Origin: an uncultured Methanosarcinaceae archaeon
GTDB lineage: Archaea; Halobacteriota; Methanosarcinia; Methanosarcinales; Methanosarcinaceae
Length of the DNA: 64,000 bases
Direction: 5' to 3'
NCBI GenBank assembly: GCA_963847185.1
Contig: CAWJYV010000001.1
Coordinates: 1 to 64,000 of the forward strand
Made by a program: the position numbers and the translations under genes. Below are positions 6,049 to 63,710 of this stretch, one piece after another; within the stretch, counting starts at the first letter, position 1, and each line of letters opens with the position of its first letter. Under the pieces are notes generated by a model. It was not told the origin of the DNA and made no database searches. It saw only the letters and a list, made by a program, of their open reading frames with translations.

Positions 6049-6452
6049 ACTCTATACTCTCGGGATACCGTTTGACAATATCCTGTGCTGTTGTAATATT
6101 CTTTTGAGATCTCATATAAACAATAAATTGTTGATTCCTTCCTAATGTAAGATAAGATCGTAATGATTAGATACCGTCTTTTAGAAAACAAAATTACATT
6201 GAGGCTTTAAAACAATACGTATTTATAGGATTCGACTTGCTCAAGATTTGATCTATCCCAAAGACAAAACAAGAATCGAAATAACTAAAGGGCACTGGAT
6301 TTTCCAGGTCATATAACCTTAGTAGTCTCCTATTCGATTAGCGCGTGGCTTCTAATAAGATATGCACCCAATAGGGGTTTTAGAGAAAAGTAGAAACAAT
6401 AACAATAATCACAATATATATTAATAGGAATCGCAAAAGTTGAGCAAAAAAA

Positions 6453-7648: not shown

Positions 7649-8157
7649 AGAAGCTTTCTCCAATTTATAATTATACAACGCATAATATATATAAGATTGG
7701 ATAATGTATATTATTACATGGTTTTTGGGAAGGAAATGATTAATATTACTAAACATTTGTAAATAAATTACTTTTAGGAGTAGAGGGTTTTGGGGGTGGT
7801 AGGCAAAATAACCTTTACAATAAAATTTAGTTCATAGAGTTTTAAGTAAGCTAGCTTCCATATGAAATTTAATAAGCGTGTGACGTCGTGCCAGTCTAAA
7901 CACTTGTAGAAGAGATTGTCCTCGGGATATGTAGAATAGACTGTCCCCCGCACCTGTTCTTAATTTATACCTGTGACTGTAGTCGGGCAGCTCGGAGACA
8001 TAATAATATAGGAAGTAAAGCAAGTCAAGTAGTACAAGATATTCTAAAATGTATGAAAAGCAGTATATTATTTCTCGACATAACATACTACTATATTCTA
8101 ATATGTGTTATACAACTAAAATTTATGTAAATGGGTTTATAGTTTAATATGTTGACA

Positions 8158-8703
8158 TTAAGCTAACGTAGCCGCTTCCTTCTTTCTTCGTCGGCTTTCA
8201 GGTATTGAATTGTGATGTTTTAAGCTATTTTCAATATAAAGCACATATTCTACTTTATCAAGCCCAAATTCCCTCCCATATTTGTTGATTTTCATATATG
8301 GAAGTAGTTGTTCAGGTTGCACTTTAAGGTCTTCTTCTGTCTTTATTGCCTTTATAGGGTGATCTGGGTACTTAATGCGATTAAGTATTTTACCATCTTT
8401 TATTCTATTAAGGTAGTCTACGTATGCCTCTATACCCTTCTGTGTGATCCTGTACCTGTAAAGTCCGTTAGGACCCTTCTTAGCTAATCGCTGAATATAA
8501 GGCAAAGTAATGATCTTACCATTTCTTTTTTGTAGCTTCTGATAATGCGACATTGCACTAGAAATGTTAGTATAATGAATACCTGTTTGATATTCAATAT
8601 CACGTACAGTCATTGGTTTATTGGACTTGTATAGGGCTTCTAATATTCTAAACTTCAAAGCATTAAATTTGTGAGAATATCCAAGTGTGACTATATTAAC
8701 CAC
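8158..8703 (-). CDS. Winged-helix DNA-binding protein, paralog 1 of 4
   Basis: LKFRILEALY...TVRDIE...TGI...ISSAMS...GPNGLYRYRITQKG, a helix-turn-helix plus wing pattern. Confidence 0.75.
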   Translation of the reverse strand: MVNIVTLGYSHKFNALKFRILEALYKSNKPMTVRDIEYQTGIHYTNISSAMSHYQKLQKRNGKIITLPYIQRLAKKGPNGLYRYRITQKGIEAYVDYLNRIKDGKILNRIKYPDHPIKAIKTEEDLKVQPEQLLPYMKINKYGREFGLDKVEYVLYIENSLKHHNSIPESRRRKKEAATLA

Positions 8704-9174
8704 CTAAACATATTAGATATAAACCAATATACTTCGCCTCGATAATAATGGTTTGTTCGTTTCGATAAGAACAAATTATAAAATGTTTCTTTCAGGATAT
8801 GTTTAGTACTATGCCAGATTTAACGTATCCCAACCCGTTTTACGGATCTCCAATAATTTGGGAGATATAAGTGCCTTAGAAGAAGCTAAAAGCTTGGCTG
8901 CAAGGCTTAGCGTGGCTTCCAGTAATAAGTATGTAGAAGGTTCGGGAAATATTCAGGATGCGATATCCTCAATATAGTGTTTTTAGTGTCACCTCTGAAT
9001 TTTATGCGTTTAGTTTAGCCCTTCCATAAAAACAACATACAGAAGCCTAATTCATTTCTAAAAACAACTTTAGTTAAAAATTAATCAAAAACAAAAAGTA
9101 CTTTATGATGTGACATGCATCAATATTATCGACTTTTTGATTGTTACACAATCAATCTTCTAGGGAGTCTAATC

Positions 9175-10977
9175 ATGCCAGAGCATCAGCAAACTCAAAA
9201 GTCCACAGAATCACAAACTACTTTTCAAAAGCAAGTGACCCCCACAAAGCAGACCCTCATTTCAAACCCGATGACTATCATTCAGCGTGCCAGAATCAAC
9301 CCTAAATCTCTCACCCACGCGGACGTAATGCAACTACAGCGCACTATTGGGAACAGGGCAGTTGGTACGTTGCTGTCAGAAATTGGGCTTATTCCTTCAA
9401 AGGCTGAGCAGGCACCGCTTGTTCAGATGCAGACAATACCTGAGGATGTATCAATTTGTCCTTCTTGCTTGCAGAAGCAAGAAATCAAAGAAGAGAAAGA
9501 ACCGCTTCAAGGCAAAATGATACATCCTCTTCAAAGGCAAGAAATTCCTGAGGAAGAAGAGCTTCTTCAGAGAAAGAGGGAGAACCGCACAGGCATGCCT
9601 GATAATTTGAAAGCTGGCGTGGAAAACTTGTCCGGGATAAATATGAGTGATGTGAAGGTGCATTATAATTCAAATAAGCCAGCAGAAGTCGGAGCTTTGG
9701 CGTATACTCAGGGAACAGATATTCATGTAGCTCCAGGGCAGGAGAGGCATTTGCCACATGAAGCGTGGCATGTGGTGCAACAGGTACAGGGTAGGGTTAA
9801 ACCGACAATGCAGATGAAAGGGCTTGGCATTAGCGATGACCCGTCGCTGGAGCAAGAAGCCGATATGATGGGAGAAAGGGCAGCACATATGAGGCTTGGT
9901 CCTGCTCCTTCGCGAGTTACTAATGATCATAAAGGGTTGGACATGGCAACCTATGAATCAGAAGGTATTGTGCAACGTATGCACGCCGTCGGAACCGATG
10001 TAATCATGGAACCTGAACCTGTTGGAAAAACGCACTGGAAAATGGCAGACAAAGATACGAAAGGCCTCGGTGACGAAGTAGATGATATTGTTGGAGTTAC
10101 TGGGATTTTTCAGGGGCCCTTTACTAAGATTCGGGTGGACACACTGAATATGTGGCGTGCCCATGGGGTGGCTAAAAGATTTGGTGGCTCGGGAAGAGCC
10201 GACAATGTGGGATGGTGGCCAGGTGACATTGAAGAACAGTGGGGTTACGAGGAATGGAAAGTAGCCGGTGTTAAAAACGAAGACCATGGATTGAGCAAAG
10301 AATGGGCAGTTGGACAAGGTGAAACAGGGGAGTATCATGTTAACCGCACGCTTTTGGATGGAGAGACAATCTTGAGACAATACAGAAACCCGATCATCTC
10401 TGCCATTAACTGGGGATATAACAATGATAGGGAAGCATGGCGGCAAGTAATTGAAAACTGTGGAAAAATGAATAGAGAAGATATTGCAACAGATAATATG
10501 AAAGAATTGAATGCTTATAAGGCCCAAATGATGGACTCAGATATTAATGTCATTAATCAGTGGTTTGAACAATATTTCAGACCTTCTGCATTTTTGGTTA
10601 TTGGAAATATGACTCTGCGTTACACCGAGATCACTGCAGGAAAAAACCAAAGACCCGGAGTAAAAGAATGGCAACGTAAGGATACGCATATCGTAGGGGG
10701 TAGACCATGGAATGGACGCCCAAAGGAGAATCCCAGTTACCCACGAAACGTTGAATACACTGCCACTAATTCCAGTATTGCAAACTTATGCATCATTACT
10801 AATAATCAAGTCATTTGGGAAGCCCTTGTAAAATCTGAAGCCATTACGCCTTACCATGGGATACCGGCACCTAGGTTGGAAAATGTAGAACGTATAAAAC
10901 TTTGCGATAAAGAAGGAAATAATATTAATTTTTATCCCAAACGCTGTATCTCTGGATTTGGTATAGAGATTCCATAA
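9175..10977 (+). CDS. DUF4157 (eCIS-associated core) protein with a putative C-terminal nuclease/toxin region
   Basis: LQRTIGNRAV, GALAYTQGTDIH, HLPHEAWHVVQQ, LEQEAD. C-terminal RAHGVAKRFGGSGRADNV. Probable start MPEHQQ at 9175. Confidence 0.85.
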   Translation: MPEHQQTQKSTESQTTFQKQVTPTKQTLISNPMTIIQRARINPKSLTHADVMQLQRTIGNRAVGTLLSEIGLIPSKAEQAPLVQMQTIPEDVSICPSCLQKQEIKEEKEPLQGKMIHPLQRQEIPEEEELLQRKRENRTGMPDNLKAGVENLSGINMSDVKVHYNSNKPAEVGALAYTQGTDIHVAPGQERHLPHEAWHVVQQVQGRVKPTMQMKGLGISDDPSLEQEADMMGERAAHMRLGPAPSRVTNDHKGLDMATYESEGIVQRMHAVGTDVIMEPEPVGKTHWKMADKDTKGLGDEVDDIVGVTGIFQGPFTKIRVDTLNMWRAHGVAKRFGGSGRADNVGWWPGDIEEQWGYEEWKVAGVKNEDHGLSKEWAVGQGETGEYHVNRTLLDGETILRQYRNPIISAINWGYNNDREAWRQVIENCGKMNREDIATDNMKELNAYKAQMMDSDINVINQWFEQYFRPSAFLVIGNMTLRYTEITAGKNQRPGVKEWQRKDTHIVGGRPWNGRPKENPSYPRNVEYTATNSSIANLCIITNNQVIWEALVKSEAITPYHGIPAPRLENVERIKLCDKEGNNINFYPKRCISGFGIEIP

Positions 10978-11027: not shown

Positions 11028-11285
11028 CTACAGAAGACCTGAAAATGCAGAGGAAATTGTGGCACGTTGAACACCTGTTATTTTTTCAATATCCCGTGTA
11101 GTCAGTGGTTTTTTATCTTCTAACCATGCGTTATACAACGCTTCTAATATACGGAACTTTAAGAAATTTGGTTTATGAGCGTACCCGATTTTCACGATAT
11201 TTCTCACCTGAAAGATTTGTGTGAAAATTAATATCGGGAGCCTCGATAATAAACGTTTGTTCGTTTCCGTTATCGATAGGCACAA
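11028..11285 (-). pseudogene. Truncated winged-helix paralog 2
   Basis: Nearly identical to the N-terminus of 63084-63710 (KIGYAHKPNFLKFRILEALYN); ends after ISSA. Confidence 0.8.
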
Positions 11286-17069: not shown

Positions 17070-17640
17070 CCAGCCTTCCACAGATCCCAGAAACCTCTCC
17101 GATAACTCAGATCTGAGTCATCGAGGAAACGTAGTCGTAAGGCTATAAAAAAGTGATGATATAGAGTATCCATTTTACTAGTTTTAATTATGTTGTGGAA
17201 CCTGTAGGGATATATTTAGTCCATTCTTACCCAAGCGATAGCCGTGGCCTTTGTACGTGGCTTCTAGGTATATGTGCGTGGAGATGAAGGAATAAACGTA
17301 CTGCGTCAGCCTCCCACAAATATCCCAGAATCAGAGCCGCTACACGGGATTACTTTTAATTATGCTTGTGAAACCTTCTAGGATATTTGGTCCATCCTTA
17401 TCCTAAACGAGGGTCTTAGCCTTTGTACGTGGCTTCTAAGTATATGTGCGTGGAAATGAGGGATGGACTTACCGCGAGCCTTCCATATATCCCAGAAGCT
17501 TGCAGAGCGCTTTATTGTCATTAAATCCCTTAATTACGGGGATTCCAGATTTTGGGAGATATATAAGTGCCTAAGAAAAGAATTTACGCTTGGTTGGGAG
17601 GTTTAGCGTGGCTTCTGGGATATGTATGTGGAAGGCTCAT
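17070..17640 (+). repeat. Cluster of three fold-back repeat units (types A, B, C)
   Basis: Each unit starts AGCCTTCCA..ATCCCAGAA and ends GTGGCTTCTRGG..ATGT..GTGGA. Unit A carries the palindrome at 17099-17124. Confidence 0.85.
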
Positions 17641-25764: not shown

Positions 25765-26450
25765 TCCACATCTCCCAGAAACCTCTCCGCTAACTCAAAT
25801 CTGGGATATCGAGGAAACATAGTTGGATGGCTATAAAGAAAGTGATGACAAAGAGTATTCATTTTACTCGTTTTAATTGCGTTGTGGAGCTGTCCGGGAT
25901 ATATTGGTCCATCTAGCTACGAGCGATAGCCTTGGCCTTTGTACGTGGCTTCTAGGTATATGTGCTTAAGGATAGATGTGCCAGCCAGCCTTCCACATAT
26001 CCCCGAATCAGAGCCGCTACACGGGATTACTCTTTTTTCACTTCTTATGTAGTCTGTAGGGATATATTGGTCCATCCGGTTACGAGCGATAGCCCTGGCC
26101 TTTGTACATGGCTTCTAGGTATATGTGCGTGGTTAGTATGTTTCTTTAGGATATCCCAGAAACCTCTCCGATAACTCAGATCTGAGTCATCGAGGAAACA
26201 GAGTCGGAAAGCTATAAAAAAGTGATGATATAGAGTAGTCATTTTTCCATTTCACATGTAGTGTCAGGGATATGTTTAGTCCATCTGGCTACGAGCGATG
26301 GCCCTGGCCTTTTAGATTAGCTTCTAAGTATATGTGCGTGGAGGATTCGGGATAGATGCACTACACCACCTTCATCACATCCCATAAATCTCTCCGATAA
26401 CTCAGATCTGAGTTATCGGTAAACGTTATCATTTGGCTACAAAAAAGTGC
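25765..26450 (+). repeat. Cluster of fold-back repeat units (A, B, A, partial A)
   Basis: Same arms as 17070-17640. Palindrome copies at 25787 (degenerate), 26168 and 26394 (perfect 26 bp). Confidence 0.85.
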
Positions 26451-26554
26451 TGAATTCCTCTTAGTTCCTGAGTAATTTGAGGAATAATCTATTAGGCAGG
26501 TAAATAAAAAGTCCTGAGCCTACATTTCTCGTGAGTTCAGGACTTCCATTTAGA

Positions 26555-33412: not shown

Positions 33413-34036
33413 TTAAGCAGACTCAGCTTCACTACTAAGTTGCCTTATACGATTTTCCATGCGTAATATATGTGTTTCCTTATCGAGCCCATGCTCTTCA
33501 TCAAACGCTTTACCCATTTGCGTCATTGAATAATACGGCAGTAGTTGTGAAGGTAGTAGATCAAAGTCTTCCAGTGTCCGTAGTTTGCGCTGTGGGTATT
33601 TCCCGTAGGCTTCCATTCGCTGAACTTTACCAACCCGTTTCAGACTAACTCCCCGCCTAATTCGGTGTAAATAGGCTACATATGCTTCTATACCCTTCTT
33701 TGTGATCTTATACCTGTAAAGTCCATTAGGTCCTTTCGCCTCTAATCGCTGTATATAAGGCAGTTTTATTATCTTACCACTTCTTTTGTGAACCTTCTGA
33801 TACCGTGACATTGCACTCGAAATTGTGGTACGTTGAACACCTGTTATTTTTTCAATGTCGCGTGTAGTCAGTGGTTCTTTAGATTTAAATAAAGCTTCTA
33901 GGATACGGAACTTCAAAAAATTGTTCTTATGAGCATATCCCAATGCAGCTATGTTATCACCTGAAAGTTTTATGCATAAACCAATATCTAGAGCCTCGAT
34001 AATAAAGGTTTGTTCTTTTCCGCTATTGGCGGGCAC
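33413..34036 (-). CDS. Winged-helix DNA-binding protein, paralog 3 (true start probably downstream of the ORF start)
   Basis: HKNNFLKFRILEALF...PLTTRDIEKITGV...GPNGLYRYKITKKGIEAY. Confidence 0.75.
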   Translation of the reverse strand: MPANSGKEQTFIIEALDIGLCIKLSGDNIAALGYAHKNNFLKFRILEALFKSKEPLTTRDIEKITGVQRTTISSAMSRYQKVHKRSGKIIKLPYIQRLEAKGPNGLYRYKITKKGIEAYVAYLHRIRRGVSLKRVGKVQRMEAYGKYPQRKLRTLEDFDLLPSQLLPYYSMTQMGKAFDEEHGLDKETHILRMENRIRQLSSEAESA

Positions 34037-39454: not shown

Positions 39455-39832
39455 GTGGAGCCTTTTGGGATATATCTTGGTCTATTTGGCTACAAGCGAT
39501 AACTGTGGCCTTTGTAAGTGGCTTTTAGATATATGTGTGTCTTCAGGATAGATATGCTGCAATATATCCCAGAAACCTCTCCGATAACTCAGATCTGAGT
39601 CATCGGTAAACATAGTCGGAAGGCTTTAAAGAAATGCTGACATAGAGTATTCATTTTACTCGTTTCAATTGCTTTGTGGAATCTTCAGGGATATATTGGT
39701 CCATCTGGATACGAGCGGTATCCTTGGCCATTGTACGTGGCTTCTAGGCGTATGTGCGTGGAGGCTTCGCAAGATACTCGACAGTGCCAGCCTTCCATAT
39801 ATCCCAGAAACCTCTCCGATAACTCAGATCTG
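39455..39832 (+). repeat. Cluster of fold-back repeat units (right half, A, partial A)
   Basis: Palindrome copies at 39581-39606 and 39816-39832; junction hairpin at about 39739-39812. Confidence 0.85.
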
Positions 39833-49335: not shown

Positions 49336-49507
49336 TTAGGCGCCATTCTAATAATTAACTCTTAGCCATAGGTTTTTGTAAAATTCAATAAAATTCTAAG
49401 CCTCATTAGCAAAGTCCTATAAATTACCTTAGCTCGTTAAATAAGCCTGGCCATGAAGCTCACAGACCTGATGGCACAGCTATTAGAAGGCATAAATGCG
49501 AAACTTA

Positions 49508-52141: not shown

Positions 52142-52473
52142 TTTCCCTCTACCCAGATATCTTTGTTAATGAAATACACTAATCTTAATGGTCAAGAAAG
52201 GTTAATATCTTAACTTTATATTTTTTTATCGGTTATAACTCATAAAAATAATCTTCTCAAATACATTTTTTCGGCAGTGGTCACTGTAAAAGGACTGTTG
52301 GAGTCAGTGACTCTCGCTAGAGTGGATAGGATAATTACTAACGAACCCTGATTTCGGGCTTATAAGAAGGCTCGATTACCCTATACAAATCCCGAAATAA
52401 TATTAAAAAACGACATCAATTAACACTCTCAACGAACCCATATTTTTTATATTTTACGTTGTAATATATTTTC

Positions 52474-52818: not shown

Positions 52819-53325
52819 ACATTTATCAGTCTTACTTAATCATTTCTTTTTTAAAAGTGTCTCACTTCCAAACAGGACTATAACTATATTTGGTATATAC
52901 TATACTACTCCTTATATACTCGCCTAAACTTTTTTAGATTTAAGCTAAGTGTTCAGGATAAATTAGGAAGTGACGGTCAAATTTGCTTCCACTTCTTAAC
53001 AGACAGATCGAGAAACGTATAGAATTTCTTCTATTTTTGCACAAACGATATCAGTAGGCACAATTATCGGCAATACGTATAAATATGATACGTTTCTGAT
53101 GGCATAGCTATTAGAAGGCTCTATTACCTATACAAATCCCGAACTTCTTTCTTCCTTCTTTAAAAACACATCACTTCTTGGCTCTGTAGAAAATCGATTT
53201 AATTCAACTACAAGAGACTGAAATCAGATCAATGAAAGTGTATCAGGTTATTCAGTTCAAATTAATGAAGATTCGCTGTTTCAGAGGATTTCTACAGAGC
53301 CAAAAAATGAGTTGAAAATAAATAA

Positions 53326-53562: not shown

Positions 53563-53989
53563 ACAACCCCTCTTTGAAAGCTTAAAAAAGTTTTAAAAAA
53601 CATTCATTAAAAGATACTATGATGGACATTTATGCTCATTATTTGGCCAAATATATTCTACTCATTCTATATAACGGTGTTTATTTTATATAATAAACTA
53701 GATTTTCAAATAATAAAAATCCCAAATCGTAAATGGGATGATGATTCTCTACTTAAATATACTAAAATATATACTTTCACACGACTAAAATCACAAACAA
53801 AATAGGTTTTCTACAAAGCCCACCTCTTTTCATCTTTCCTTAAAATGGAGCAACGTGATCTAAAATCTCATTTTTGCATAAACCGCATCAGTTGGCTCAA
53901 TTTAAGACAATACGTATAAATATGATACGTTTTTATTAATATTGTCGATAAATTGACAAACAAGTTAATTAAAGAGGAGATTTTAGAAA

Positions 53990-54445
53990 ATGGTTGCACC
54001 AAAAGTTGAAGTTGAGAAAAGCAAGCACAAAAGTTGAGACACCAGTGCAGAACAAAGTAGATGAATATTTCCAGCAGAATGAGAAGTTCTTTAATACGGG
54101 CGACATAAACGCAAAAAAAGCATTTTTCATGCTCGGGCAATATTGCCGAAAAGTCGGGTTTGAGTGCGAGGAAAAGAAAATTGCTGAGAAGCGGCACAGA
54201 GAGCAAGTTTCAAGCAAGATTGGCACGTGAAATATAGTAACAACATGACTTATAGAGCCTTTACGATAATAATGAAACTGCTGGATAGCGCCGCTTTAAA
54301 GTGCAACCCGCAACTGTTTTATAAATGTCAGTGGTGCGTGCAAGGAACTGATGATCAATAGTAATCTTGTTAGTGACAAGAAAGCTCTAAGCACCGAAGA
54401 TGGAAATATGGCTTTCTCCTCGGACTCTACCAGCAATTCAAATAA
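53990..54445 (+). pseudogene. Multiply frameshifted gene resembling the Cas8b (TM1802/Csh1) C-terminal domain (Cas11-like)
   Basis: RBS GAGGAG; pieces KKAFFMLGQYCRKV / NMTYRAF..IMKLLD..ALKC / LSTEDGNMAFS(L)GLYQQFK*. Confidence 0.5.
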
Positions 54446-55733
54446 GTATTTTTTTTGCTCTTTTTCTTGCTTGAATGATTCATTGCTATTTATTGATGCA
54501 CGGTCACCAACCTTTTTACTATTTTTGGGATATTATTAGATTTTAAAAGTTCATCAGGATCTCCTCTACTAATTCTTTTACTTTTTTTGTTTCTCCTGTC
54601 TTGGGATCAGTTATTTCTTTTTTCATTGCATCATTACATGAATCAGTAGCCGTAATCATAGAGTTCTTTTGTAAACTTCTTATTTTCAAATTATTATCAA
54701 CATTAAGTGCGGAAGAATCACAATTCTCCGCATTCGGTTTCTTAACTAAAGAAGAAATATTCGATTTATTCTTTCCATAATATTTGTCCCATGTAGTTTT
54801 AAGGTCGGTTTCGTGTACATTATCTAAAAATTCCATCCAACGAAAGATCCACTCTGAACTATTTAATCGGCTTACATATGTTCTGAACACTTCTTCACAG
54901 TTAATTAAGTTATTAATAAACTCAGCATAAAGAGTCATCCAGTACAAATTATGTAAGGAAATAAGTATTCCTGAAGTAGTTTTCATATCCCATAAGTATT
55001 CAGGTTTCTCTAACTGTTTACAAATTGGGCAAATACATTCAAATGAACGAGAGTCCTTATTCTTCTGGCTTCCATTCATCTTCATACCAGGACCATAAAA
55101 ATCAAGGTGAAACATAAACTTACGGAGTGTTCTTCCAAAAGATGCAGATGACGAGTCAAAGTATATTTGAGTGTTAGTATATCTATTTGCATATGCAATT
55201 AATGGTAGTAGATATGGAGAGGATAGACCTAATAAATGGAAAGGTTTACTCACACTATATTCTATCGCGAAACCAAGTCTTAATGGCATTAAATATTTCA
55301 TCTCTGAGCTGGTAGACAGAGAAAATCCATCGTATTCATAATTGTGATTATCTGTTGTTACTTCATACCAGCGTTCCATATCCTCATAACAGTCACCATG
55401 AATACAGTTAAACAACTTAAAGTCTGAATTATAAGCATCATCTATATGTTTATCTTTATACTCAAACATTGATTGAGCATTTTTCGCAGACTCTTTTAGA
55501 CAATCTTCAAAAATCTTCTTATCTTTAAATTGACTCCATTTTCTCGGTGTTGGAATATCAAGAGTCATTCCAACATCACAAACATCCATTTGCCATTGAA
55601 TTACTTTTTCCCACGTAAGTTTTTTATGAATATCTGGATCTTTCAATTCACCCATTTTAGATTTCAAGATTTGATAACCACCGGAGTCACCAAAAAACAA
55701 AACATCGTTTCTAATTTCATTTCTGCCTTTTAC

Positions 55734-57376
55734 CTTGACTTTGTCACATTTCCTTTTCACGTCTACCGTGAAGTATAATTTTATTCCTATATATTTGAGA
55801 TCGTGAAACAAATAACAAGTGACTTTATCAAGTCAAACACTATCTCTGTAGAAAAATACATTTCTGAAACGAATCTTGAATTCTATTTTCAAACTAAAAC
55901 TCGTTGTGTCGCTTCAACGTGTATTGATTACCTTAATGGTTTGATGCTTCTTCCATATCGGAAAAATTTGAGAAAAATGGCAATTTATTGTTGTAAATGC
56001 TCTAACAACGAATCACTCAGCCATTTCCTCTCAACTTCTCCTTGGCTTTCTGCAGATCTCCTCAAATCTGTTCGAACAAAAGCCATTCAAACTATAGGCA
56101 AAAATGGTGTTCTTATACTTGACGAATCAAGCATAAAAAAATCTGGAAATAGTTCTGTTGGAGTTTCTCATCAGTATTGTGGCAACCTTGGAAAAAAGGA
56201 CAATTGTCAGGTTGGTGTATTCCTTGCTTATTTTAAAAAGAAGAGAAGAATGTTGATTGATGAGAGATTATATCTCCCACAAAAATGGATTGATGATAAG
56301 GTACGTTGTTTAAAGGCTAAAGTTCCTCTTGAAGAGATTAAATTCCGAACCAAGCATGAGCTTGGTCTTGAAATGATTGATAATGCAATAGAAGAAGGTA
56401 TTCCTTTTTCCTATGTTACAATGGATGGATTCTACGGTGAAAATCCGGAGTTGTTGACAGAACTTGAAATTAGAGGTTTAACTTTTGTTGCAGACATAGC
56501 TGTCGATACTCTTGTTTATATTGAGGAACCAGTTGCTGAGATACCTGCGAAAAAGGGAATAAGAGGAAGAAAACCCACTATCCCCAAGGTTTTGAATACA
56601 TTATCAACAAGAGTAGATTCTCTTTCCAATTCAGTTGAGGGATGGGAACTTATCAATGTTAGAAAAACGGAAAGAGGGTATAAAAAAGTCTATTTTAAGG
56701 CTATAAAAGTTTGGAGACGTCAGAATAAATTACCTTGTGAGAAGCCGGTATGGCTTCTTATAAGTAAAGATTCAGAATCAAATGAAATTAAATATTCACT
56801 ATGTAACGCCTCTGAAGATACATCATTCGATAAACTTGCAAAAATGCAGAGTTCAAGGTATTGGATTGAGAGAGCATTTCAAGATGCGAAAGGAGACTGT
56901 GGAATGGCAGAATACATGGTGAGAAATTGGAATGCGTGGCACCATCATATGGCATTAGTAATGCTTGCAATGCTTATTTTACTCTCCTATCAGAAAAAAT
57001 TCAACAAAATGTATAAGATGTCAATTCCTGGAGTTTTATGGATACTGAAGTACCATAATCCATTGAAAAGAATCGATGCTCGGGAAATTGCAGGAATCTT
57101 AAATCAAGATAATGAGTTGAGAAGGAAAGCAAGGGTTAGCAGATTAAGAAGTTCATAATAATTTTCTGATTGGAATAAAATGGATTCGTGTTCCGACGAC
57201 TGGTAAGTATACAATTTTGACAGGAAAAATTTATGACAGTAGAAATAATGGAGATAGTGATCAAGAAAAAAATAGAAGAAACAAGAATAGGAAAGGGAAA
57301 AGATTAAAGATACAGCAAATTTGAATGGAAATAAGTTGTGATGATTGTAAAAATGAGTTAATTTGACAAAGTCAAG
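55734..57376 (+). mobile_element. IS701-family insertion sequence
   Basis: TIRs CTTGACTTTGTCACATT and AATTTGACAAAGTCAAG; 4-bp target duplication TTAC. Confidence 0.9.
55803..57158 (+). CDS. IS701-family transposase
   Basis: ILDESSIKKSG..SVGV.HQYCGNLGKKDNCQVGV, DGFYG, RYWIERAFQDAK..CGM. Confidence 0.95.
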   Translation: MKQITSDFIKSNTISVEKYISETNLEFYFQTKTRCVASTCIDYLNGLMLLPYRKNLRKMAIYCCKCSNNESLSHFLSTSPWLSADLLKSVRTKAIQTIGKNGVLILDESSIKKSGNSSVGVSHQYCGNLGKKDNCQVGVFLAYFKKKRRMLIDERLYLPQKWIDDKVRCLKAKVPLEEIKFRTKHELGLEMIDNAIEEGIPFSYVTMDGFYGENPELLTELEIRGLTFVADIAVDTLVYIEEPVAEIPAKKGIRGRKPTIPKVLNTLSTRVDSLSNSVEGWELINVRKTERGYKKVYFKAIKVWRRQNKLPCEKPVWLLISKDSESNEIKYSLCNASEDTSFDKLAKMQSSRYWIERAFQDAKGDCGMAEYMVRNWNAWHHHMALVMLAMLILLSYQKKFNKMYKMSIPGVLWILKYHNPLKRIDAREIAGILNQDNELRRKARVSRLRSS

Positions 57377-57708
57377 TTACATTATCTATTCCATAGTAAG
57401 CAGATACTAGCATTGCATTATAAGAAAAAAATGGATTATCCGACCACCAACTACACTGTTTATCTTTGCCTAGAATAGAGACACTAGATGGATAAAAGTA
57501 ATCAATATCTTCAGGTGTAATCGTAACCGGAATATAAATTAATTTATTTTCTTTAAATGTGTTTACCATGTTGTAACCCCTTAATTTCCTGATCTTTAAC
57601 GGACTTTGCGAAATTTAAAAAAAGAAATGAAGAGATAGATTTTTGTTAAAAATAAAAAATTTAAAGTTTTGGGTTGTATTTTTTGGTTTTTAAAACCTTT
57701 TCAGGATA

Positions 57709-59118
57709 TTAGATAGCACTAGAAGCTTTGCCATCTTTTTTATCTTCAATATCTTCCACAAATGTTGGTTTTCCCCAGTTCTCGAGTTCAGTTTCATGGA
57801 AGGGATCTACATAACTTCCACCAGGGAACATTTTCATTGCAATCTGGTAAACTGGCATATACTTGCTTTTATCCTTTTCACCTTTTTTAAATATAATATC
57901 AGGTTGATAATCTTCAACTGGTTCTAAATTACCTTTAAGTCCAAACAATACAAACTCGACAACACCGTTGAAATATACACCAGGTTTTCTTTCAGCATCA
58001 TATATCCCGATAGATTTCAGACTGAAACCCCAACTTCGCATGAGACCCCATCTATCTTCGAGATTTTGAGTAGTCGCCCATAAAAAAAGTGCAGAATCTT
58101 TTGAAATTTTGGTTTCTGTTTTCTTAGCTTCGTCGGCATTTTTTGGATCCGCAACTATAACATTATACACCCCTGGTGGTGGTACAGCTATCATTTTAGG
58201 TGGCTTATTAGTATGTTCTTTCTTGTACTTCTCGAAATCTTTATCGGCTTTGTTTGGTGTGACAGCGCCTGTTATAGCTTTATCTACAAGCTCTTTTGCT
58301 TTCGCAGCAACGTCCTTAATTTCTTGTGGAGCATCTTCTTTAGCGTTAGGGTCTTTTGCAGCTTCCATTAACTTGAGTAACTTATATCCTGCATCAATTG
58401 AGAGGCGATCAGCCCTCATTTCATCCATAACATATTTGGCATCTTTATCTTTGTTATTATACGACTTCCCTATATATTTCAGATTTGAAAGGGTGCCTTC
58501 ACTGAGACCTATTACTTTAGCTTGCTTTTCGGTAGTGCTACCATATTCTTCGTCCCGATAACTCAGATCTGAGTTAACGGAATTTTGTTTAAGTTTACTT
58601 TGTTTTCGCTCATCGGCGCGTTTAGTGTAAATTTCTTCTAAAAGTTCAGTTTCTTTAAAAATCTGTAATGGATTTTTCTTTCGATGCTTATTGAATTCAA
58701 TTATAGCTTCTTCTTCATCTACATCTAAAGAAAACGGCTTCATGAAGCACAGAGCTTCAATTTCTTTGTATTCTTTATTTTCTTTTTTCTTATACTCTTC
58801 TTCTTTTTGTAATTCTTTTAATGCTCTCCATCTGCGATGACCAGATATAATCAGATACTCCTGGTCAATGACAATAGGTTCAAGCTGGCCAAGGTCTCTA
58901 ATACTCTCTTTTAAAGCCTCATCAATTGTTTCCTTCCCATATATCTCAATATTTTTTGGATGTTCTTTAAGCTTTTTAGGATTGATAGGAAAAATTCCGC
59001 TAATTACTTCTTTTTTCTTTGGTTGTTCTTGTTTTTCATCTTGCAGTACTTGTTCATCTTGCAGTACTTGTTCATTATCATGAACATGTTTTTGAGTATC
59101 TTCTTTATTTACTTCCAT
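57709..59118 (-). CDS. ParB N-terminal domain, HTH and degenerate MT-A70 methyltransferase-like fusion
   Basis: LKESIRDLGQLEPI...ISGHRRWRA; KQAKVIGLSEGTL; YNVIVADPKN...LFLWATT...WGF...EFVLFGLKG. Confidence 0.85.
   Translation of the reverse strand: MEVNKEDTQKHVHDNEQVLQDEQVLQDEKQEQPKKKEVISGIFPINPKKLKEHPKNIEIYGKETIDEALKESIRDLGQLEPIVIDQEYLIISGHRRWRALKELQKEEEYKKKENKEYKEIEALCFMKPFSLDVDEEEAIIEFNKHRKKNPLQIFKETELLEEIYTKRADERKQSKLKQNSVNSDLSYRDEEYGSTTEKQAKVIGLSEGTLSNLKYIGKSYNNKDKDAKYVMDEMRADRLSIDAGYKLLKLMEAAKDPNAKEDAPQEIKDVAAKAKELVDKAITGAVTPNKADKDFEKYKKEHTNKPPKMIAVPPPGVYNVIVADPKNADEAKKTETKISKDSALFLWATTQNLEDRWGLMRSWGFSLKSIGIYDAERKPGVYFNGVVEFVLFGLKGNLEPVEDYQPDIIFKKGEKDKSKYMPVYQIAMKMFPGGSYVDPFHETELENWGKPTFVEDIEDKKDGKASSAI
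58555..58580. promoter_or_regulatory. Intragenic near-perfect 26-bp palindrome (parS-like candidate)
   Basis: CCGATAACTCAGATCTGAGTTAACGG matches the perfect palindrome at 26394-26419 at 25 of 26 positions. Confidence 0.6.
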
Positions 59119-59190: not shown

Positions 59191-60756
59191 ATGTTCTATG
59201 AAATTTTTGAAAAAAAATGGTTTAATTATAAGCCTTATAACACTTATTCAAACGAAAAAAAAATTGATGTACTTCTTACCTTACGTAGTGTTTTTAATAT
59301 AAAATTAGAAGCAACTGAAAATATTAGAGAATTGAGATATTTAGATGTTTTAGAGGAAAAAATATTAAGACTAGTACAGTCTGACTTAATAGAGGATATA
59401 TATAAGTGCGAGAATGAAATAAACAAACTAAACGAAGATATTACAGATCCAGATATACTAGAAAAAATAGAGACTGCTGGTATTGATGGGACAATGCATA
59501 AAATAACTGGACATGAAAAATTATCTGATAACGGCTTTGATCATATTAAAGGACTACTTCTATTGAATGAACTTCACGTACTTCAAATGGAATCGTTAAA
59601 GGATCGAAAACGTATTCCTTATATCAGTGAATATGAAAAAAAAGTTTTGAGTGAAATATTAAACATTTTATCAATTTCTATTTTCGATAACTACCAAAAA
59701 ATGGAATCTATTTATCGTCGGAAGATTCCAATTGATTTTAAATATAGACGAGAATTAAAAGATGCAATAGAAGATTCAGAAATAGAAAATTCTAAAGTTT
59801 TAGGTCCGGAAAAAAGTCATATCCAGGTTGATTACCTAAAAACAGAAGATCTAGATTTAAGAAAATGGGAGCCTAAAAAATGGTTTACAAGACGATATGA
59901 TTTATTTCGGGCTTCATACGATCCATATTATTTCGCTTATATATTTAATTTTCAAGCGTTAATGAACGGTTTTGACAGATATTCTCTAAAGAAACAAATT
60001 GAAGTTGGTCTTGCTAATTATTGCTCAATTCAAGTACAACTCAAAGCTCTTTACATGCGGTTAAATGAAAAAAAAGAGCTAACTGAGTATGAAGAAATAA
60101 TATGGAATTATAGAATTAGAACACTTTTCTCCAGTAAGATTTATTATGACGTTCTTATAGCAAAAATATTCTTAATCGATATCAAAAAGGATCATTTTTA
60201 TAAAGACAATATATTAAACGAACTTGAAAGAAAAGTATCAAAAAATATTAAATTAGAGAAGTACCACATAGAAAATGACCAACCATTTACTCTATCTATG
60301 GAATCTTCTTATTGTGAACCTGCTAAAAAAAATAAAGAACTTCTAGAAGAAGCAGAAAAAGTTTACAACTATAAGTACAATTCTTTGTGTTGTTTTATTA
60401 AACCTGATCAAATGAGTGTTGACAGAGCCTATATACCTCCTAGTGATCCTTACAACCCTAACCAAGCAGAGTTCATTAAATTTCTTTTGGCAAAACATGA
60501 GTTAGAAACAGTAGAAATCGAAGCATTGCTTCAATATAATCGAACATTAAATAAATCGAGATATGAAAATAAATATGATAAAATTTTCGTTAAAAGCCTA
60601 TGTGCTTACAAAACATCGTGTGTTCTACTGACAGATGAAGAAATATGGGATGCATACTATACGCTCCCAGATGATTATCCTGATAAAGGAAAAATTCTCA
60701 ATGAAATAAAAAAGGCAAAGGTTGATCTTGATCCAAAGGAAATTAATAAAGAGTAA
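59191..60756 (+). CDS. Hypothetical protein (521 aa), divergent from the ParB-like gene
   Basis: Long open frame, Lys/Glu/Ile-rich; no motif recognised. Confidence 0.75.
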   Translation: MFYEIFEKKWFNYKPYNTYSNEKKIDVLLTLRSVFNIKLEATENIRELRYLDVLEEKILRLVQSDLIEDIYKCENEINKLNEDITDPDILEKIETAGIDGTMHKITGHEKLSDNGFDHIKGLLLLNELHVLQMESLKDRKRIPYISEYEKKVLSEILNILSISIFDNYQKMESIYRRKIPIDFKYRRELKDAIEDSEIENSKVLGPEKSHIQVDYLKTEDLDLRKWEPKKWFTRRYDLFRASYDPYYFAYIFNFQALMNGFDRYSLKKQIEVGLANYCSIQVQLKALYMRLNEKKELTEYEEIIWNYRIRTLFSSKIYYDVLIAKIFLIDIKKDHFYKDNILNELERKVSKNIKLEKYHIENDQPFTLSMESSYCEPAKKNKELLEEAEKVYNYKYNSLCCFIKPDQMSVDRAYIPPSDPYNPNQAEFIKFLLAKHELETVEIEALLQYNRTLNKSRYENKYDKIFVKSLCAYKTSCVLLTDEEIWDAYYTLPDDYPDKGKILNEIKKAKVDLDPKEINKE

Positions 60757-60886: not shown

Positions 60887-61030
60887 TTAGGCCACTTCAC
60901 TTGCAGCTTCGAGAACAACTTCGACCATTGCCTTTTCAATTGATGATCCATGCTTCAGTACATACTCAATACTCTCAGGATATTGTTTGATAATATCCTG
61001 TGCCGTTGTAACCTTCTTTTGTAACCTCAT
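60887..61030 (-). CDS. 47-aa small protein downstream of the integrase
   Basis: MRLQKKVTTAQDIIKQYPESIEYVLKHGSSIEKAMVEVVLEAASEVA; a homologous truncated start MRSQKNITTAQDIVKRYPESIE lies at 6115-6050. Confidence 0.6.
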   Translation of the reverse strand: MRLQKKVTTAQDIIKQYPESIEYVLKHGSSIEKAMVEVVLEAASEVA

Positions 61031-61368
61031 ATAAACTATAAATTATTGATTCATTCCTAATGTAAGATAAGATCGTAGTGATTAGATGCCTTCTTTTATA
61101 AAACAAAATTACATTGAGGCTTTAAAACAATACGTATTTATAGGATTCGACTTGCTCAAGATTTGATCTATCCCAAAGACAAAACAAGAATCGAAATAAC
61201 TAAAGGGCACTGGATTTTCCAGGTCATATAACCTTAGTAGTCTCCTGTTAGATTAGTGCGTGGCTTCTAATAAGATATGCACCCAATAGGGGTTTTAGAG
61301 AAAAGTAGAGAGAATAACGATAATCACAATATGTATTAATAGGAATCGCAAAAGTTGAGCAAAAAAAA

Positions 61369-62565
61369 TTACTTTATTTTGGATGAAACTTTAGCCAGTA
61401 AGGTTGGATCTTGTTGTAAATATGTGAGTAAATCTGATATTAGCATTTCCTTATCCTGTGCTGCTTCCTGTGTGACCGGCATCCCACAATCACAATATCT
61501 CATTCCTGACGGGATCGGCATACTGCACCTGGCACATCTATTAATCTTGTTTCCTTCCTTATCCTGAACAACTCTTATCCCGTAAGATGCAAGTACAGCA
61601 TTATCAATTTCGGGATTCGACAAATGTATATACGTTTCCGTTTGGCTGCTAGATCCAGCCCATCCAAATTGCTTCTTAAGCTGTTGTTCAGTCATTGTAT
61701 TGGCGAGTCTAGTTGCCTGAGAATGGCGGAGTAAATGACAATATACGTTCTTTTTAATCCCAGCTTTCTTGGCTGCCTTTTTTAACAACAGATTCATTGA
61801 TATTGTTCTTAGTGGCGTGTGCACACGCGGTTCGTCCTTAGCTTGTTTCTGTTTATTCTTACTATAACTTCTATTAGTATACTCTCTAGCTGTAGTGAAT
61901 AATGGAGCTTGGGGATCATTTGCATTTGGATGATCAACAAGCCACTGCTTAAGATACACCTGGTACTTATGCAACAACACCTGTCTCTTCCCAGTTTTAC
62001 CATTAAGTGTTATATGGAACCCATAGGGATGATCTTTAACATCGCCTATTTTACAGTTTTGGATTTCCCCAACTCTTGCTCCTAACTCATAAATTATAGC
62101 TACCAATGCTTTATCCCGGATGCCAATACAACATGCAATTATTTTCTCAACTTCTTCCTCACTAAGGATATCTTCCGACTCTAATTTTTTACCTTCTACT
62201 CTAGCAAACCCGAACTTTGCAAGCTCAATTAGCTCTTTATTATCAGTGCTTGCACCATATCCTTTCAGGAACCTTTGAAACGTAATTTTGTACTGCATCT
62301 TACTTGTCGGGCTGGCAGGATTCCCATTTTTCTTTGTCCAATCATTGATTGCGTCTTGGATATCATTAACATCCTTCTTGGTCAACTTGTCCAGGTCGGT
62401 CTTAGTATGTGTCAACAGGAACCGCAAAAAATGCTCATTGTTTCTAATGGTAGCTTCCTTCAAACCACTACGATTCAGGTCCTTTAGATACTCAAGAACA
62501 ATGCTCTGGTTATGTTCGGAAATATTATTCTCAATACAAAAGTTAACTATATTATGCGTATCCAT
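61369..62565 (-). CDS. Tyrosine recombinase/integrase with a C-terminal zinc ribbon (intact)
   Basis: GARVGEI (R), GKTG (K), HLLRH (HxxR), FGW (W), ETYIH (Y); CARC...CDCG. Probable start MDTHN at 62565. Confidence 0.95.
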   Translation of the reverse strand: MDTHNIVNFCIENNISEHNQSIVLEYLKDLNRSGLKEATIRNNEHFLRFLLTHTKTDLDKLTKKDVNDIQDAINDWTKKNGNPASPTSKMQYKITFQRFLKGYGASTDNKELIELAKFGFARVEGKKLESEDILSEEEVEKIIACCIGIRDKALVAIIYELGARVGEIQNCKIGDVKDHPYGFHITLNGKTGKRQVLLHKYQVYLKQWLVDHPNANDPQAPLFTTAREYTNRSYSKNKQKQAKDEPRVHTPLRTISMNLLLKKAAKKAGIKKNVYCHLLRHSQATRLANTMTEQQLKKQFGWAGSSSQTETYIHLSNPEIDNAVLASYGIRVVQDKEGNKINRCARCSMPIPSGMRYCDCGMPVTQEAAQDKEMLISDLLTYLQQDPTLLAKVSSKIK

Positions 62566-63083
62566 AGAAACTTTCTCCAATTTATAATTATACAACGCAT
62601 AATATATATAAGATTGGATAATGTATATTATTAACTGGTTTTTGGGAAGGAAATGATTAATATTACTAAACATTTGTAAATAAATTACTTTTAGGAGTAG
62701 AAGGTTTTGGGGGTGGTAGGCAAAATAACCTTTACAATAAAATTTAGTTTATAGAGTTTTAAGTAAGCTAGCTTCCATATGAAATTTAATAAGCGTGTGA
62801 CGTGGTGCCAGTCTAAACACTTGTAGAAGAGATTGTCCGCGGGATATGTAGAAGACTGTCCCCGCACCTGTTATTAATTTATACCCCTGTGACTGTAGTC
62901 GGGCAGCTCGGAAATAATAATAATAAGAAGGGAAAATATAAGCAAACTGTTCGTATAAAATATATACTACAAAAGTTTCAAAAAAGGAATGATGTTTATT
63001 ATCGGATGGATAATAGGTCTATACCACAAAACATTATTGAGCACCGGAATTTGTAATAAGTTATATACTACAAAATGTTGATA

Positions 63084-63710
63084 TTACTCCAACTCGACTT
63101 CACCGCTAACAATCTCCCTCATGCGATTTTCCATGTATAATATTGTTTCTTTCTTTTTTATATACTGCTGCCCGTATGTGGTTATTGAGTAGTACGGCAA
63201 TAGTTGTTCAGGGAGCAATTTCAAGTCTTCTTTTGTTGTTATATGACGACTGACAGGGAATTTACCATAGGTCTCCATATGCTGAGACCTTTTTGCAACC
63301 CGATTCAGGCTAACGCCGCGCTGAATTCTGTTCAAATAATTTGCATACGCCTCTATGCCCTTTTTTGTGATTTTGTAGCGATAGAGACCATTCGGCCCTT
63401 TCTTTTCTAATCGCTGTATGTAAGGTAGTTTAATGATCTTGCCATTTCTTTTCTGGATCTTCTGATACCGTGACATGACACTTGAAACTGCTGTATATTG
63501 AACCCCCGTAATTCTTTCAATATCTCGTGTAGTCAGTGGTTCTTTATCTTCTAACCATGTGTTATACAGCGCCTCTAAAATACGGAACTTTAAAAAGTTG
63601 GGTTTATGAGCATATCCGATTTTCACGATATTTCTCACCTGAAAGTTTTGTGTGAAAATTAATATCGGAAGCCTCGATAATAAGGGTTTGTTTCCGCTAT
63701 CCGCAGGCAC
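63084..63710 (-). CDS. Winged-helix DNA-binding protein, paralog 4
   Basis: Same family as 8158-8703, 11028-11285 and 33413-34036. Confidence 0.75.
   Translation of the reverse strand: MPADSGNKPLLSRLPILIFTQNFQVRNIVKIGYAHKPNFLKFRILEALYNTWLEDKEPLTTRDIERITGVQYTAVSSVMSRYQKIQKRNGKIIKLPYIQRLEKKGPNGLYRYKITKKGIEAYANYLNRIQRGVSLNRVAKRSQHMETYGKFPVSRHITTKEDLKLLPEQLLPYYSITTYGQQYIKKKETILYMENRMREIVSGEVELE

Follow-up and report, generated by a model that had tools for sequence, protein, structure and literature searches.

A transglycosylase-like gene interrupted by an insertion sequence and its ParB/MT-A70 fusion partner on a probable archaeal mobile element

Results

Gene organization at the locus

The subject of this report is a three-gene module in a 64,000-nucleotide stretch of DNA from an uncultured Methanosarcinaceae archaeon (assembly GCA_963847185.1, contig CAWJYV010000001.1, positions 1 to 64,000), hereafter the window. 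The module consists of a gene for a protein resembling tRNA-guanine transglycosylases (TGTs), here called the TGT-like protein; a gene for an intact 469-amino acid (aa) fusion of a ParB_N domain, a helical middle and an MT-A70-like domain (ParB-MT; 57709..59118, minus strand), delineated with Pfam, PADLOC, structure prediction and fold comparison; and, divergent from the latter, a gene for a 521-aa protein of unknown family (59191..60756, plus strand), recognized as the third conserved gene by its co-occurrence with the two partners. The minus-strand open reading frames (ORFs) are the 469-aa protein at 59118..57709, a 65-aa ORF starting at 57569 and a 422-aa ORF ending at 54543. ParB-MT lies upstream of the co-oriented TGT-like gene, with 139 bp between the stop codon of the one and the start of the other. 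An earlier note on this DNA had placed the two genes side by side on the minus strand, 139 bp apart, and the ORF coordinates bear this out; its description was right as to adjacency and motifs, but it omitted both the insertion sequence (IS) that breaks the TGT-like gene and the conserved 521-aa gene. The module adjoins a gene for a tyrosine integrase, a mobile-element marker, at 62673..61369 (61369..62673, minus strand; Pfam Phage_integrase 4e-18; phrog_1 2.9e-27), and is probably part of an integrated mobile element in a probable methanogen.

The TGT-like gene is split by an IS701-family element

The 65-aa and 422-aa ORFs belong to one TGT-like gene, interrupted after codon 64 by a single clean insertion and otherwise undamaged, since P0002 (459 aa), the intact homologue closest to it, maps across both sides of the insertion. 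Residues 1-64 of P0002 map to 57569-57378 with 90.6% identity (5' piece, codons 1-64, 57377..57569, minus strand), and residues 64-459 map to 55733-54546 with 86.9% identity (3' piece, 396 aa, 54543..55733, minus strand), the latter piece holding all catalytic and Zn motifs as well as the C-terminal tail. The intervening element is 1643 bp long (55734..57376, plus strand) and encodes a transposase (55803..57158, plus strand) whose score on NF033540, the IS701 model, is 301.6 bits (cut-off 150) and which matches Pfam DDE_5 at 6.5e-50. It has 13-nucleotide (nt) inverted ends (CTTGACTTTGTCA) and is flanked by a 4-bp TTAC target duplication at 55730-33 and 57377-80, across one copy of which the TGT-like reading frame runs on. 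Membership of the IS701 family is borne out by transposase score, inverted ends and short target duplication alike, and no second copy of the element lies within the window. The insertion has inactivated the transglycosylase in this genome.

Motifs and predicted fold of the TGT-like protein

Along the 3' piece follow the motifs GDSGG (55677-91), TLDIP (55551-65), HLLG (55227-38), FDSSS (55146-60), CICPIC (55020-37) and SLHNL (54945-59). All the motifs listed in the earlier note (DSGG, LD, HLLG, DSSS and the CxCxxC...H Zn site) were recovered here as invariant columns: D79, D122, H229/G232, D256, C296/C298/C301 and H324 are identical in 17/17 aligned TGT-like sequences. The best solved-structure match of the family by sequence profile is the archaeal TGT (arcTGT) of Pyrococcus, 1iq8 (8.5e-13), in which the catalytic residues align with D95, D130, D249 and the Zn site. 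An AlphaFold (AF2) model of P0002, which is 87% identical to the window protein, was obtained from the 17-sequence alignment with a predicted local distance difference test (pLDDT) score of 75.9 and a predicted template modelling (pTM) score of 0.74, and its C-terminus consists of helices followed by a low-confidence tail. In Foldseek this model matched solved arcTGT and bacterial and human TGT structures at ~1e-9, with template modelling (TM) scores on the query of 0.45-0.55. Because the motifs align to 1iq8 and the model matches TGT structures, the protein is predicted to have a guanine transglycosylase fold and the corresponding catalytic apparatus. The window fragment reaches 45.9 bits on TIGR00449 (cut-off 47.6) and is itself without a Pfam match; PF01702 is precomputed on 24 of the 31 listed homologues.

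Family placement of the TGT-like protein

As judged by profiles, the TGT-like protein is not an arcTGT, nor is it a bacterial DpdA, DpdA1 or DpdA4, and its link to DpdA2 is remote. On the arcTGT equivalog model TIGR00432 it scores 39.6 bits against a cut-off of 350, and among 17 family members there are 15 weak matches (best E 8.1e-13). Housekeeping bacterial Tgt proteins from genomes score 131-157 bits on the same arcTGT model; the tRNA enzymes are therefore far closer mutually than to the TGT-like family. ArcTGTs possess C-terminal tRNA-binding domains including PUA, and the window protein has no Pfam domain at E<=10, PUA and PF20314 included. The view that this is not a tRNA-type arcTGT thus stands on both profile and architecture.

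The close family is rare: of 5.8 billion proteins searched, those matching at E<=0.001 fall into 31 clusters. One of these clusters is labelled as a Methanogenium metagenome-assembled genome (MAG), and a Methanosarcinales MAG locus (L001) encodes a homologue that is 61% identical. The wider clade is large, a profile search having given 1560 cluster representatives, mostly of 350-400 aa, at E<=0.001, of which 239 reached E<=1e-30; none of the 10 representatives looked up bears a functional name, one short member being labelled "hypothetical protein". When the TGT-like protein was compared with phages by tblastn, only phages of ~200 kb were matched, at 22-29% identity, and a bacterial Tgt, used as tblastn query against plasmids, matched nothing but bacterial tgt genes and a singleton TGT of a Nostoc plasmid. 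BCSR5 DpdA2 matches at least 8 window-family members by phmmer (3e-8 to 4e-6).

Among viral structure models the best fold match was an unnamed viral protein (1.1e-21, TM 0.65), followed by a 'tRNA guanine transglycosylase' of Achromobacter phage Motura (8.1e-15) and by R9TGF0 of Vibrio phage nt-1 (5.4e-10). R9TGF0 has 464 aa, the same length as nt-1 DpdA2 (YP_008125322), which is located between FolE and QueC. The phiST protein M4SLA5 is a fold match only (2.1e-4, TM on query 0.33). On the strength of these models, the viral matches are much stronger than those to solved tRNA TGTs.

A quick maximum-likelihood tree was built from 81 rows, namely 12 window-family members, 42 sub-sampled representatives, the genome relatives L002 and L003 described below, 16 bacterial MAG proteins, 2 jumbo-phage proteins, nt-1 DpdA2, 9g DpdA1 and 5 bacterial Tgt; it omits three near-identical Tgt, representatives outside 330-480 aa, three quarters of the later representatives and the broken window protein. 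A branch with a support of 100 puts bacterial Tgt, the sole tRNA enzyme in the tree, on one side and all other rows opposite. Ten of the 12 window-family rows form a clade with a support of 98, which P0028 joins at the 96 level, while P0029 groups with other representatives, and nt-1 DpdA2 falls on the window family's side on a long branch. Because the scores to named DpdA proteins are low and the tree contains no arcTGT, we would call the protein DpdA-like by function and context only, by analogy, and as a member of no named DpdA subfamily.

Some further features of the wider clade were observed. Phages of 195-260 kb infecting Vibrio, Pseudomonas, Xanthomonas, Erwinia and Achromobacter, together with 'Phage NCTB', carry a TGT-like gene of this clade. 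In Vibrio phage vB_VcorM_GR7B (154971-156587; L031) and Pseudomonas phage vB_PpuM-Illi-2 (L032), no Que genes lie within ~6 kb of it. Inteins are present in three wider-clade TGT-like proteins (P0135, P0164 and P0148) and in the viral QueE of L002 (435-2213), with LAGLIDADG domains in two of these.

Genomic context of the relatives

The nearest genome relatives of the TGT-like protein are found on a Bacilli MAG contig (L002) and on a 69-kb contig of an uncultured archaeon (L003), scoring 190 and 173 bits, respectively, on the profile of the TGT-like family, where bacterial Tgt score 28-46 bits. On the L002 contig, QueD and the intein-bearing QueE are followed by a phosphoribosyltransferase, FolE, QueF, the TGT-like gene and one unknown gene, then by QueC, DNA polymerase B and a SegE-type endonuclease. 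In L003 an AAA_24 protein and a clamp-loader-like ATPase precede QueD, QueE, FolE, QueC and QueF, which are followed by a GNAT protein, the TGT-like gene, DNA polymerase B, a PD-(D/E)XK nuclease and an ERCC4 nuclease. The same arrangement has been described for phage DpdA systems making dPreQ0 or dPreQ1 (PMC6884629, PMC10516641). With respect to the DpdA identity suggested in the earlier note, the picture is accordingly divided: the nearest relatives are in viral preQ0/preQ1 clusters, but there is no bacterial DpdA, DpdA1 or DpdA4 match and DpdA2 is remote.

A different arrangement was seen in seven proteobacterial loci (L004, L008, L009, L016, L024, L027 and L029), where a distant TGT-like gene of 405-570 aa, belonging to no curated family, comes after a gene for a ~550-aa unknown protein, often with an integrase or resolvase nearby. 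The ~550-aa proteins are mutually homologous in six of these loci, that of L004 being without a match, and the pair looks like another uncharacterised two-gene module. Kinship between these proteins and the 521-aa protein of the window was considered and rejected, with zero phmmer matches.

The ParB-MT fusion has a classical ParB box and a degenerate methyltransferase motif

The N-terminal part of ParB-MT matches ParB_N (PF02195) at 28 bits (cut-off 26.3), and residues 338-448 match the PADLOC model MTase_II at 1.9e-10. Its AF2 model (pLDDT 77.2) gave fold matches of ~5e-7 to CDP-bound ParB (3.5e-7), Noc and the pNOB8 ParB N-domain, and also to METTL3 and Tetrahymena MTA1. For the MT-A70 fold the Foldseek match was 4.6e-7, with a root-mean-square deviation of 4.3 over ~150 columns. 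The ParB nucleotide-binding GxxRxxA box reads SGHRRWRA (58822..58845, minus strand); it aligns with GERRWRA of Noc 7nfu, and S92, G93, H94, R95, R96 and W97 are nearly invariant in an alignment of 18 ParB-MT sequences. By this alignment the ParB domain is of the classical GxxRxxA type and not DndB/DpdB-like, so that the parallel with DpdB is one of analogy, not homology. PADLOC returned no DpdB match for ParB-MT, only SspB at 0.038. By PHROG, the fusion matches ParB-like partition proteins and DNA methyltransferases (phrog_4715 2.5e-19, phrog_498 4e-10), while tblastn of ParB-MT against plasmids and phages yielded only distant ParB_N matches.

The assignment of the second domain to MT-A70 falls short in Pfam, where the C-terminal part of the window protein alone reaches 15.6 bits on PF05063 against a cut-off of 23.9. 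It is upheld by the family profile against PDB (MTA1 8.3e-12, METTL3 9.4e-7), by the fold and by the presence of PF05063 on 5 of 23 ParB-MT homologues. DPKN (58138..58149, minus strand) occupies the position of the catalytic DPPW (motif IV) when aligned to MTA1 and METTL3, as the earlier note had stated, and the degeneration turns out to be family-wide. The 18 members read DPKN, DPKS, DPKG, DPKI, DPQD, DPPD, DPIN, DPDD, DVSG, YSSS, NFPV or DFPA at this position; DP is kept in 14/18 and DPP in 1/18, but an aromatic fourth residue in 0/18, and none of the 18 has a catalytic (D/N/S)PP(Y/F/W) motif. In addition, the ~19 residues that follow motif IV in MTA1 are missing from ParB-MT. Since the aromatic residue is gone in 18/18 and the following loop is deleted, we infer that the methyltransferase domain is inactive, and that loss of catalysis is a family trait and not a local mutation.

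A palindrome within the ParB-MT gene

A repeat search found a 26-bp palindrome (58555..58580, inverted repeat I2) in codons of the ParB-MT linker (SVNSDLSYR), a region that is of low confidence in the ParB-MT model. Its 18-nt core has 6 copies in the window against 0.04 expected; the palindromes mentioned in the earlier note are therefore real, one lying inside the ParB-MT gene and its core recurring five times elsewhere. The five other copies (17103, 25791, 26172, 26398 and 39585) are intergenic and share a common repeat of ~75 nt. In homologues of 50-60% identity the spot is filled by other residues, with no gap, which indicates that the palindrome was written into existing codons and not inserted. 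It was present in 0/35 fetched loci.

The copies of the ~75-nt repeat, at 17083-17160, 25771-25848, 26152-26229, 26378-26455 and 39565-39642, are in a single orientation and are built around the palindrome CCGATAACTCAGATCTGAGT(C/T)ATCG. A miniature inverted-repeat transposable element (MITE)-like element, a protein-binding site or a terminator are possible natures of the repeat. An Rfam search of the window gave zero matches, and hence no family for the palindrome or the repeat.

Conservation of the gene pairing

Linkage was measured from the longest contig of each metagenomic homologue, identical size in the same source being taken as the sign of a shared contig. TGT-like and ParB-MT homologues had exactly equal contig sizes in six cases: 4892 bases in Logan (P0002 and P0205), 40234 in Logan with 2 contigs each (P0004 and P0042), 33768 in JGI (P0005 and P0038), 9040 in Logan with 7 contigs each (P0006 and P0039), 13271 in ENA (P0007 and P0040) and 6807 in JGI (P0225 and P0207), the TGT-like member being named first. 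On this measure the pairing is conserved, which answers in the affirmative the question of neighbourhood conservation that the earlier note had raised. Homologues of the 521-aa protein occur with both partners on the 4892 and 40234 contigs, with ParB-MT on contigs of 6052 and 21138, and with the TGT-like protein on one of 21139. The near-match between 21138 (ParB-MT, 521-aa) and 21139 (TGT-like, 521-like) was excluded from the six pairings. The 4892-base contig, having to accommodate proteins of 521, 463 and 459 aa, leaves little room for anything else, and the three genes must therefore be contiguous there. An equal contig size with a partner was not found for P0003, P0017, P0024 and P0026, nor for many homologues on contigs <6 kb.

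The C-terminal tail is conserved in TGT-like members that are known or likely to accompany ParB-MT, whereas P0026, P0028, P0029 and the relatives of 350-400 aa are without it, a distribution that fits a tail-mediated contact between the TGT-like protein and ParB-MT. The 521-aa protein had no match in Pfam, NCBIfam, PHROG, PADLOC, a PDB profile search or the Atlas.

Discussion

From the observed folds, motifs, family placement, gene linkage and IS break, we propose that the three-gene module encodes a singleton DNA transglycosylase of DpdA-like kind, supplied with preQ0 by the host and helped by the ParB fusion in the manner of DpdB. We regard this as the most likely account, by analogy with known systems, and give it about an even chance of being correct. 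With its conserved pair of Asp residues and its Zn subdomain, the intact TGT-like protein would replace guanine in double-stranded DNA by a free 7-deazaguanine base. In most Euryarchaeota, preQ0 is produced for making archaeosine. Que, FolE, arcTGT and ArcS genes are absent among the ORFs of >=100 aa in the 64-kb window, and a Pfam search found no Que or FolE genes in the element; the absence of Que genes agrees with the minimal system using host preQ0 that the earlier note had envisaged, and an outside source of the base would thus be required. Because the module is without synthesis genes, the base is presumed to be the preQ0 that the host makes for archaeosine.

ParB-MT, in which a nucleotide-binding domain of ParB type and a helical, DNA-binding middle precede an MT-A70 fold devoid of its catalytic motif, might load onto DNA and, in a nucleotide-dependent manner, choose target sites or present them to the transglycosylase, supposing that the proteins contact each other. 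It would thereby take the role that DpdB, an unrelated ParB-fold ATPase, has for bacterial DpdA, where the ATPase is required for preQ0 to be inserted into DNA (PMC10164549). The 521-aa protein may be a further partner, perhaps aiding DNA engagement. The purpose could be to shield the element's DNA from restriction, as 7-deazaguanine has been shown to do for phage CAjan (PMC6884629), or alternatively self-marking. A more elaborate version, in which a nucleotide-gated ParB clamp with a dead MT-A70 module loads at the 26-bp palindrome and hands target guanines to the DpdA-like enzyme, so that site-directed 7-deazaguanine marks are set on archaeal DNA, seems to us unlikely. If true, the DpdA/DpdB pair would have been reinvented here from non-orthologous parts, and a pseudo-methyltransferase put to a new use.

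Among known systems, the likeness to viral DpdA2, as in Vibrio phage nt-1 (YP_008125322) and Burkholderia phage BCSR5 (QRE00062), consists in a TGT fold without tRNA-binding domains, in carriage by viruses or mobile elements, in the fold match between the window family and nt-1 DpdA2 (5.4e-10), and in the neighbourhood of the window relatives L002 and L003, which adjoin FolE, QueD, QueE and QueC as do the nt-1 and BCSR5 enzymes. The DNA of nt-1 contains dPreQ0, dADG and dG+ (PMC6884629), and QRE00062 is listed as DpdA2 (PMC10516641). However, sequence similarity is remote (22 bits for nt-1 and 51.5 bits for BCSR5, the level of bacterial Tgt), and the window module is without synthesis genes and has a ParB-MT partner and a C-terminal tail not seen in those phage proteins. 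The Dpd system of Salmonella Montevideo likewise places a TGT-fold enzyme beside a ParB-fold nucleotide-binding protein, but the window protein matches neither NF041059 nor a PADLOC DpdA model, DpdC and DpdD-K genes are missing, and the module resides on a mobile element in an archaeal host; moreover, the window ParB has SGHRRW and an MT-A70 fusion where DpdB has DGQQR (PMC10164549). DpdA4 of haloarchaeal viruses such as HVTV-1 (PF20314/DUF6610) is comparable as a singleton or clustered DNA transglycosylase of archaeal viruses. PF20314 defines DpdA4, and ~30% of HVTV-1 DNA is modified (PMC10516641). The window protein, in contrast, is without PF20314 at E<=10, and its homologues carry PF01702.

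ArcTGT (TgtA) shares the alignable catalytic Asp and Zn site and, in all likelihood, preQ0 as the substrate base; it differs from the window protein, which scores 40 bits against 350, lacks the C-terminal domains and is encoded on a mobile element. METTL14 and MTA9 are inactive partners of METTL3 and MTA1. Like such subunits, ParB-MT combines an MT-A70 fold with a degenerate DPPW kept under selection across its family, but its domain is joined to ParB_N in one protein, the module shows no active MT-A70 partner, and the client we propose is a transglycosylase rather than a methyltransferase.

Our interpretation should be viewed with some caution, as several results weigh against it. That DNA is the substrate is suggested by context and analogy. 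The bacterial DpdA model NF041059 was matched neither by the window protein nor by the 17 family members, the PADLOC DpdA models were not matched by the window protein, P0002, P0024 or P0029, and PF20314, the DpdA4 family, found nothing at E<=10. The profile of the TGT-like family gives 9g DpdA1 (L035:3007-3960) -0.1 bits, and its scores of 22 bits for nt-1 and 51.5 bits for BCSR5 DpdA2 are no better than for bacterial Tgt. The tree has bacterial Tgt as its sole tRNA enzyme and includes no arcTGT. Adjacency of the metagenomic homologues was inferred from matching contig sizes, not from gene order. Among 3884 six-frame ORFs from 30 related genome loci none matched the ParB-MT profile, and Pfam detected ParB_N in none of 83 neighbouring proteins from 14 bacterial and 2 phage loci; the link to ParB is confined to the TGT-like subfamily of the window. 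Furthermore, the phage deazaguanine gene tables, in the part of the source that was available, list no DpdB or ParB partner, so that phage DpdA is read as DpdB-free (PMC10516641).

The neighbours might instead act separately, the TGT-like protein modifying DNA alone in the manner of phage DpdA and ParB-MT serving as the element's partition or anti-restriction protein, a ParB-methyltransferase fusion of a type common on mobile DNA. The PHROG matches of the fusion to partition proteins and DNA methyltransferases speak for such separate roles, as do the lack of a ParB link in all wider relatives examined and the absence of a ParB partner from the available phage gene tables (PMC10516641). We consider this doubtful, if the most serious of the rival explanations, since the pair is kept on 6 contigs across identities to the window proteins of 49-91% (ParB-MT) and 57-87% (TGT-like), the genes are co-oriented and 139 bp apart, and the C-terminal tail is found in the ParB-MT-associated subfamily but not in P0026, P0028, P0029 or the 350-400-aa relatives. 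Loss of the methyltransferase motif in 18/18 makes an anti-restriction methylase unlikely. The MT-A70-like domain might also still be enzymatic, with a changed target such as an amine outside a planar base, and further modify the inserted 7-deazaguanine or another substrate; Asp-Pro is kept in 14/18 and the fold is intact, and known phages methylate or formylate dPreQ1 further (PMC10516641). That idea is quite improbable given that the aromatic residue is found in 0/18 and the second Pro in 1/18, that, compared with MTA1, the domain lacks ~19 residues after the motif, and that the stretch aligned to 'LEIFARRNN' of MTA1 is unconserved save one Asp. Besides, the nitrile of preQ0 offers no amine for methylation, and DpdM, the methylase known to act on dPreQ1, is of another fold (PMC10516641).

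A Dpd-like restriction-modification or defence cassette, in which self DNA is marked by the TGT-like protein and ParB-MT, and DNA that lacks the mark is sensed or attacked by the 521-aa protein, would account for the conservation of the three genes together. Defence cassettes are often located beside integrases. Bacterial Dpd marks DNA with DpdA and a ParB-fold ATPase (PMC10164549), and TGT homologues are present in other predicted defence systems (PMC12839542). We nevertheless think this rather unlikely, because searches of Pfam, NCBIfam, PHROGs, PADLOC, PDB and the Atlas turned up neither a nuclease nor a helicase nor an ATPase match for the 521-aa protein, all three proteins are without a PADLOC Dpd match, and the nearest characterisable relatives belong to viral replication modules. 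The same viral clusters of DNA-replication and preQ genes argue against a mobile-element archaeosine-type enzyme that alters host or element tRNA. It is true that 1iq8, the best solved-structure profile match (8.5e-13), is an arcTGT, that the catalytic residues are the same as in tRNA TGTs and that the tree is without arcTGT. Yet the score of 39.6 bits is set against an arcTGT cut-off of 350 bits, no PUA or other C-terminal tRNA-binding domain was found, the viral fold matches far exceed those to tRNA TGTs, and ARAGORN detected zero tRNA genes in the window, making action on tRNA very unlikely.

Weighing these explanations, we return to the DpdA-like DNA transglycosylase with a ParB-type helper, and infer that the system is a variant of DpdA-type DNA modification and more than a chance association. 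The earlier note, then, was correct in what it observed, and its interpretation is partly supported. In the literature consulted, 7-deazaguanine in DNA is reported from the Dpd islands of bacteria, from phages and from viruses of haloarchaea and Sulfolobus. Full-text searches, together with the available part of the supplement of PMC10516641, yielded no account of a TGT-like gene that is paired with a ParB/MT-A70 fusion, nor of this family in methanogen elements. If our interpretation is right, it would add methanogen-type archaeal mobile elements that borrow the host's archaeosine precursor, and would link a large unnamed clade (1560 cluster representatives) to DNA modification. It would also represent a second, independent pairing of a DNA transglycosylase with a ParB-fold nucleotide-binding protein, with a bearing on why bacterial DpdA needs DpdB, and a prokaryotic case of an MT-A70 fold retained as a non-catalytic partner.

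Additional features of the window

Beyond the left end of the module, a 78-aa ORF (53994..54230, plus strand) is convergent with the TGT-like gene. A homologue of 148 aa is found at the same position in the Methanosarcinales MAG locus (L001:1202-1648, minus strand, 2.8e-26), and in view of its length the window ORF may be truncated or mis-started. No att site of the element was identified. Direct repeats lie near the left edge of the module and a histidine-kinase gene (53033-53095 and 53870-53932, 63 nt, 84% identity; 49468-49491 and 53096-53119, 24 nt, 96%; 52380-52396 and 53127-53143, 17 nt, 100%), and they could be att remnants.

The integrase region is duplicated, with 92.6% nucleotide identity between 6049-8015 and 60964-62930, and the second integrase copy (6453-7756) is broken into two ORFs. 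A 208-aa protein adjacent to the integrase (63087-63710) has three further paralogues of 57-85% identity, at 8158-8757, 11040-11261 and 33431-34036. Owing to this duplication and these paralogues, the region is seen to be a patchwork of several related integrated elements or remnants. Near the second integrase copy, a 620-aa protein (9115-10977, plus strand) carries the extracellular contractile injection system (eCIS) core domain PF13699 (3.8e-9).

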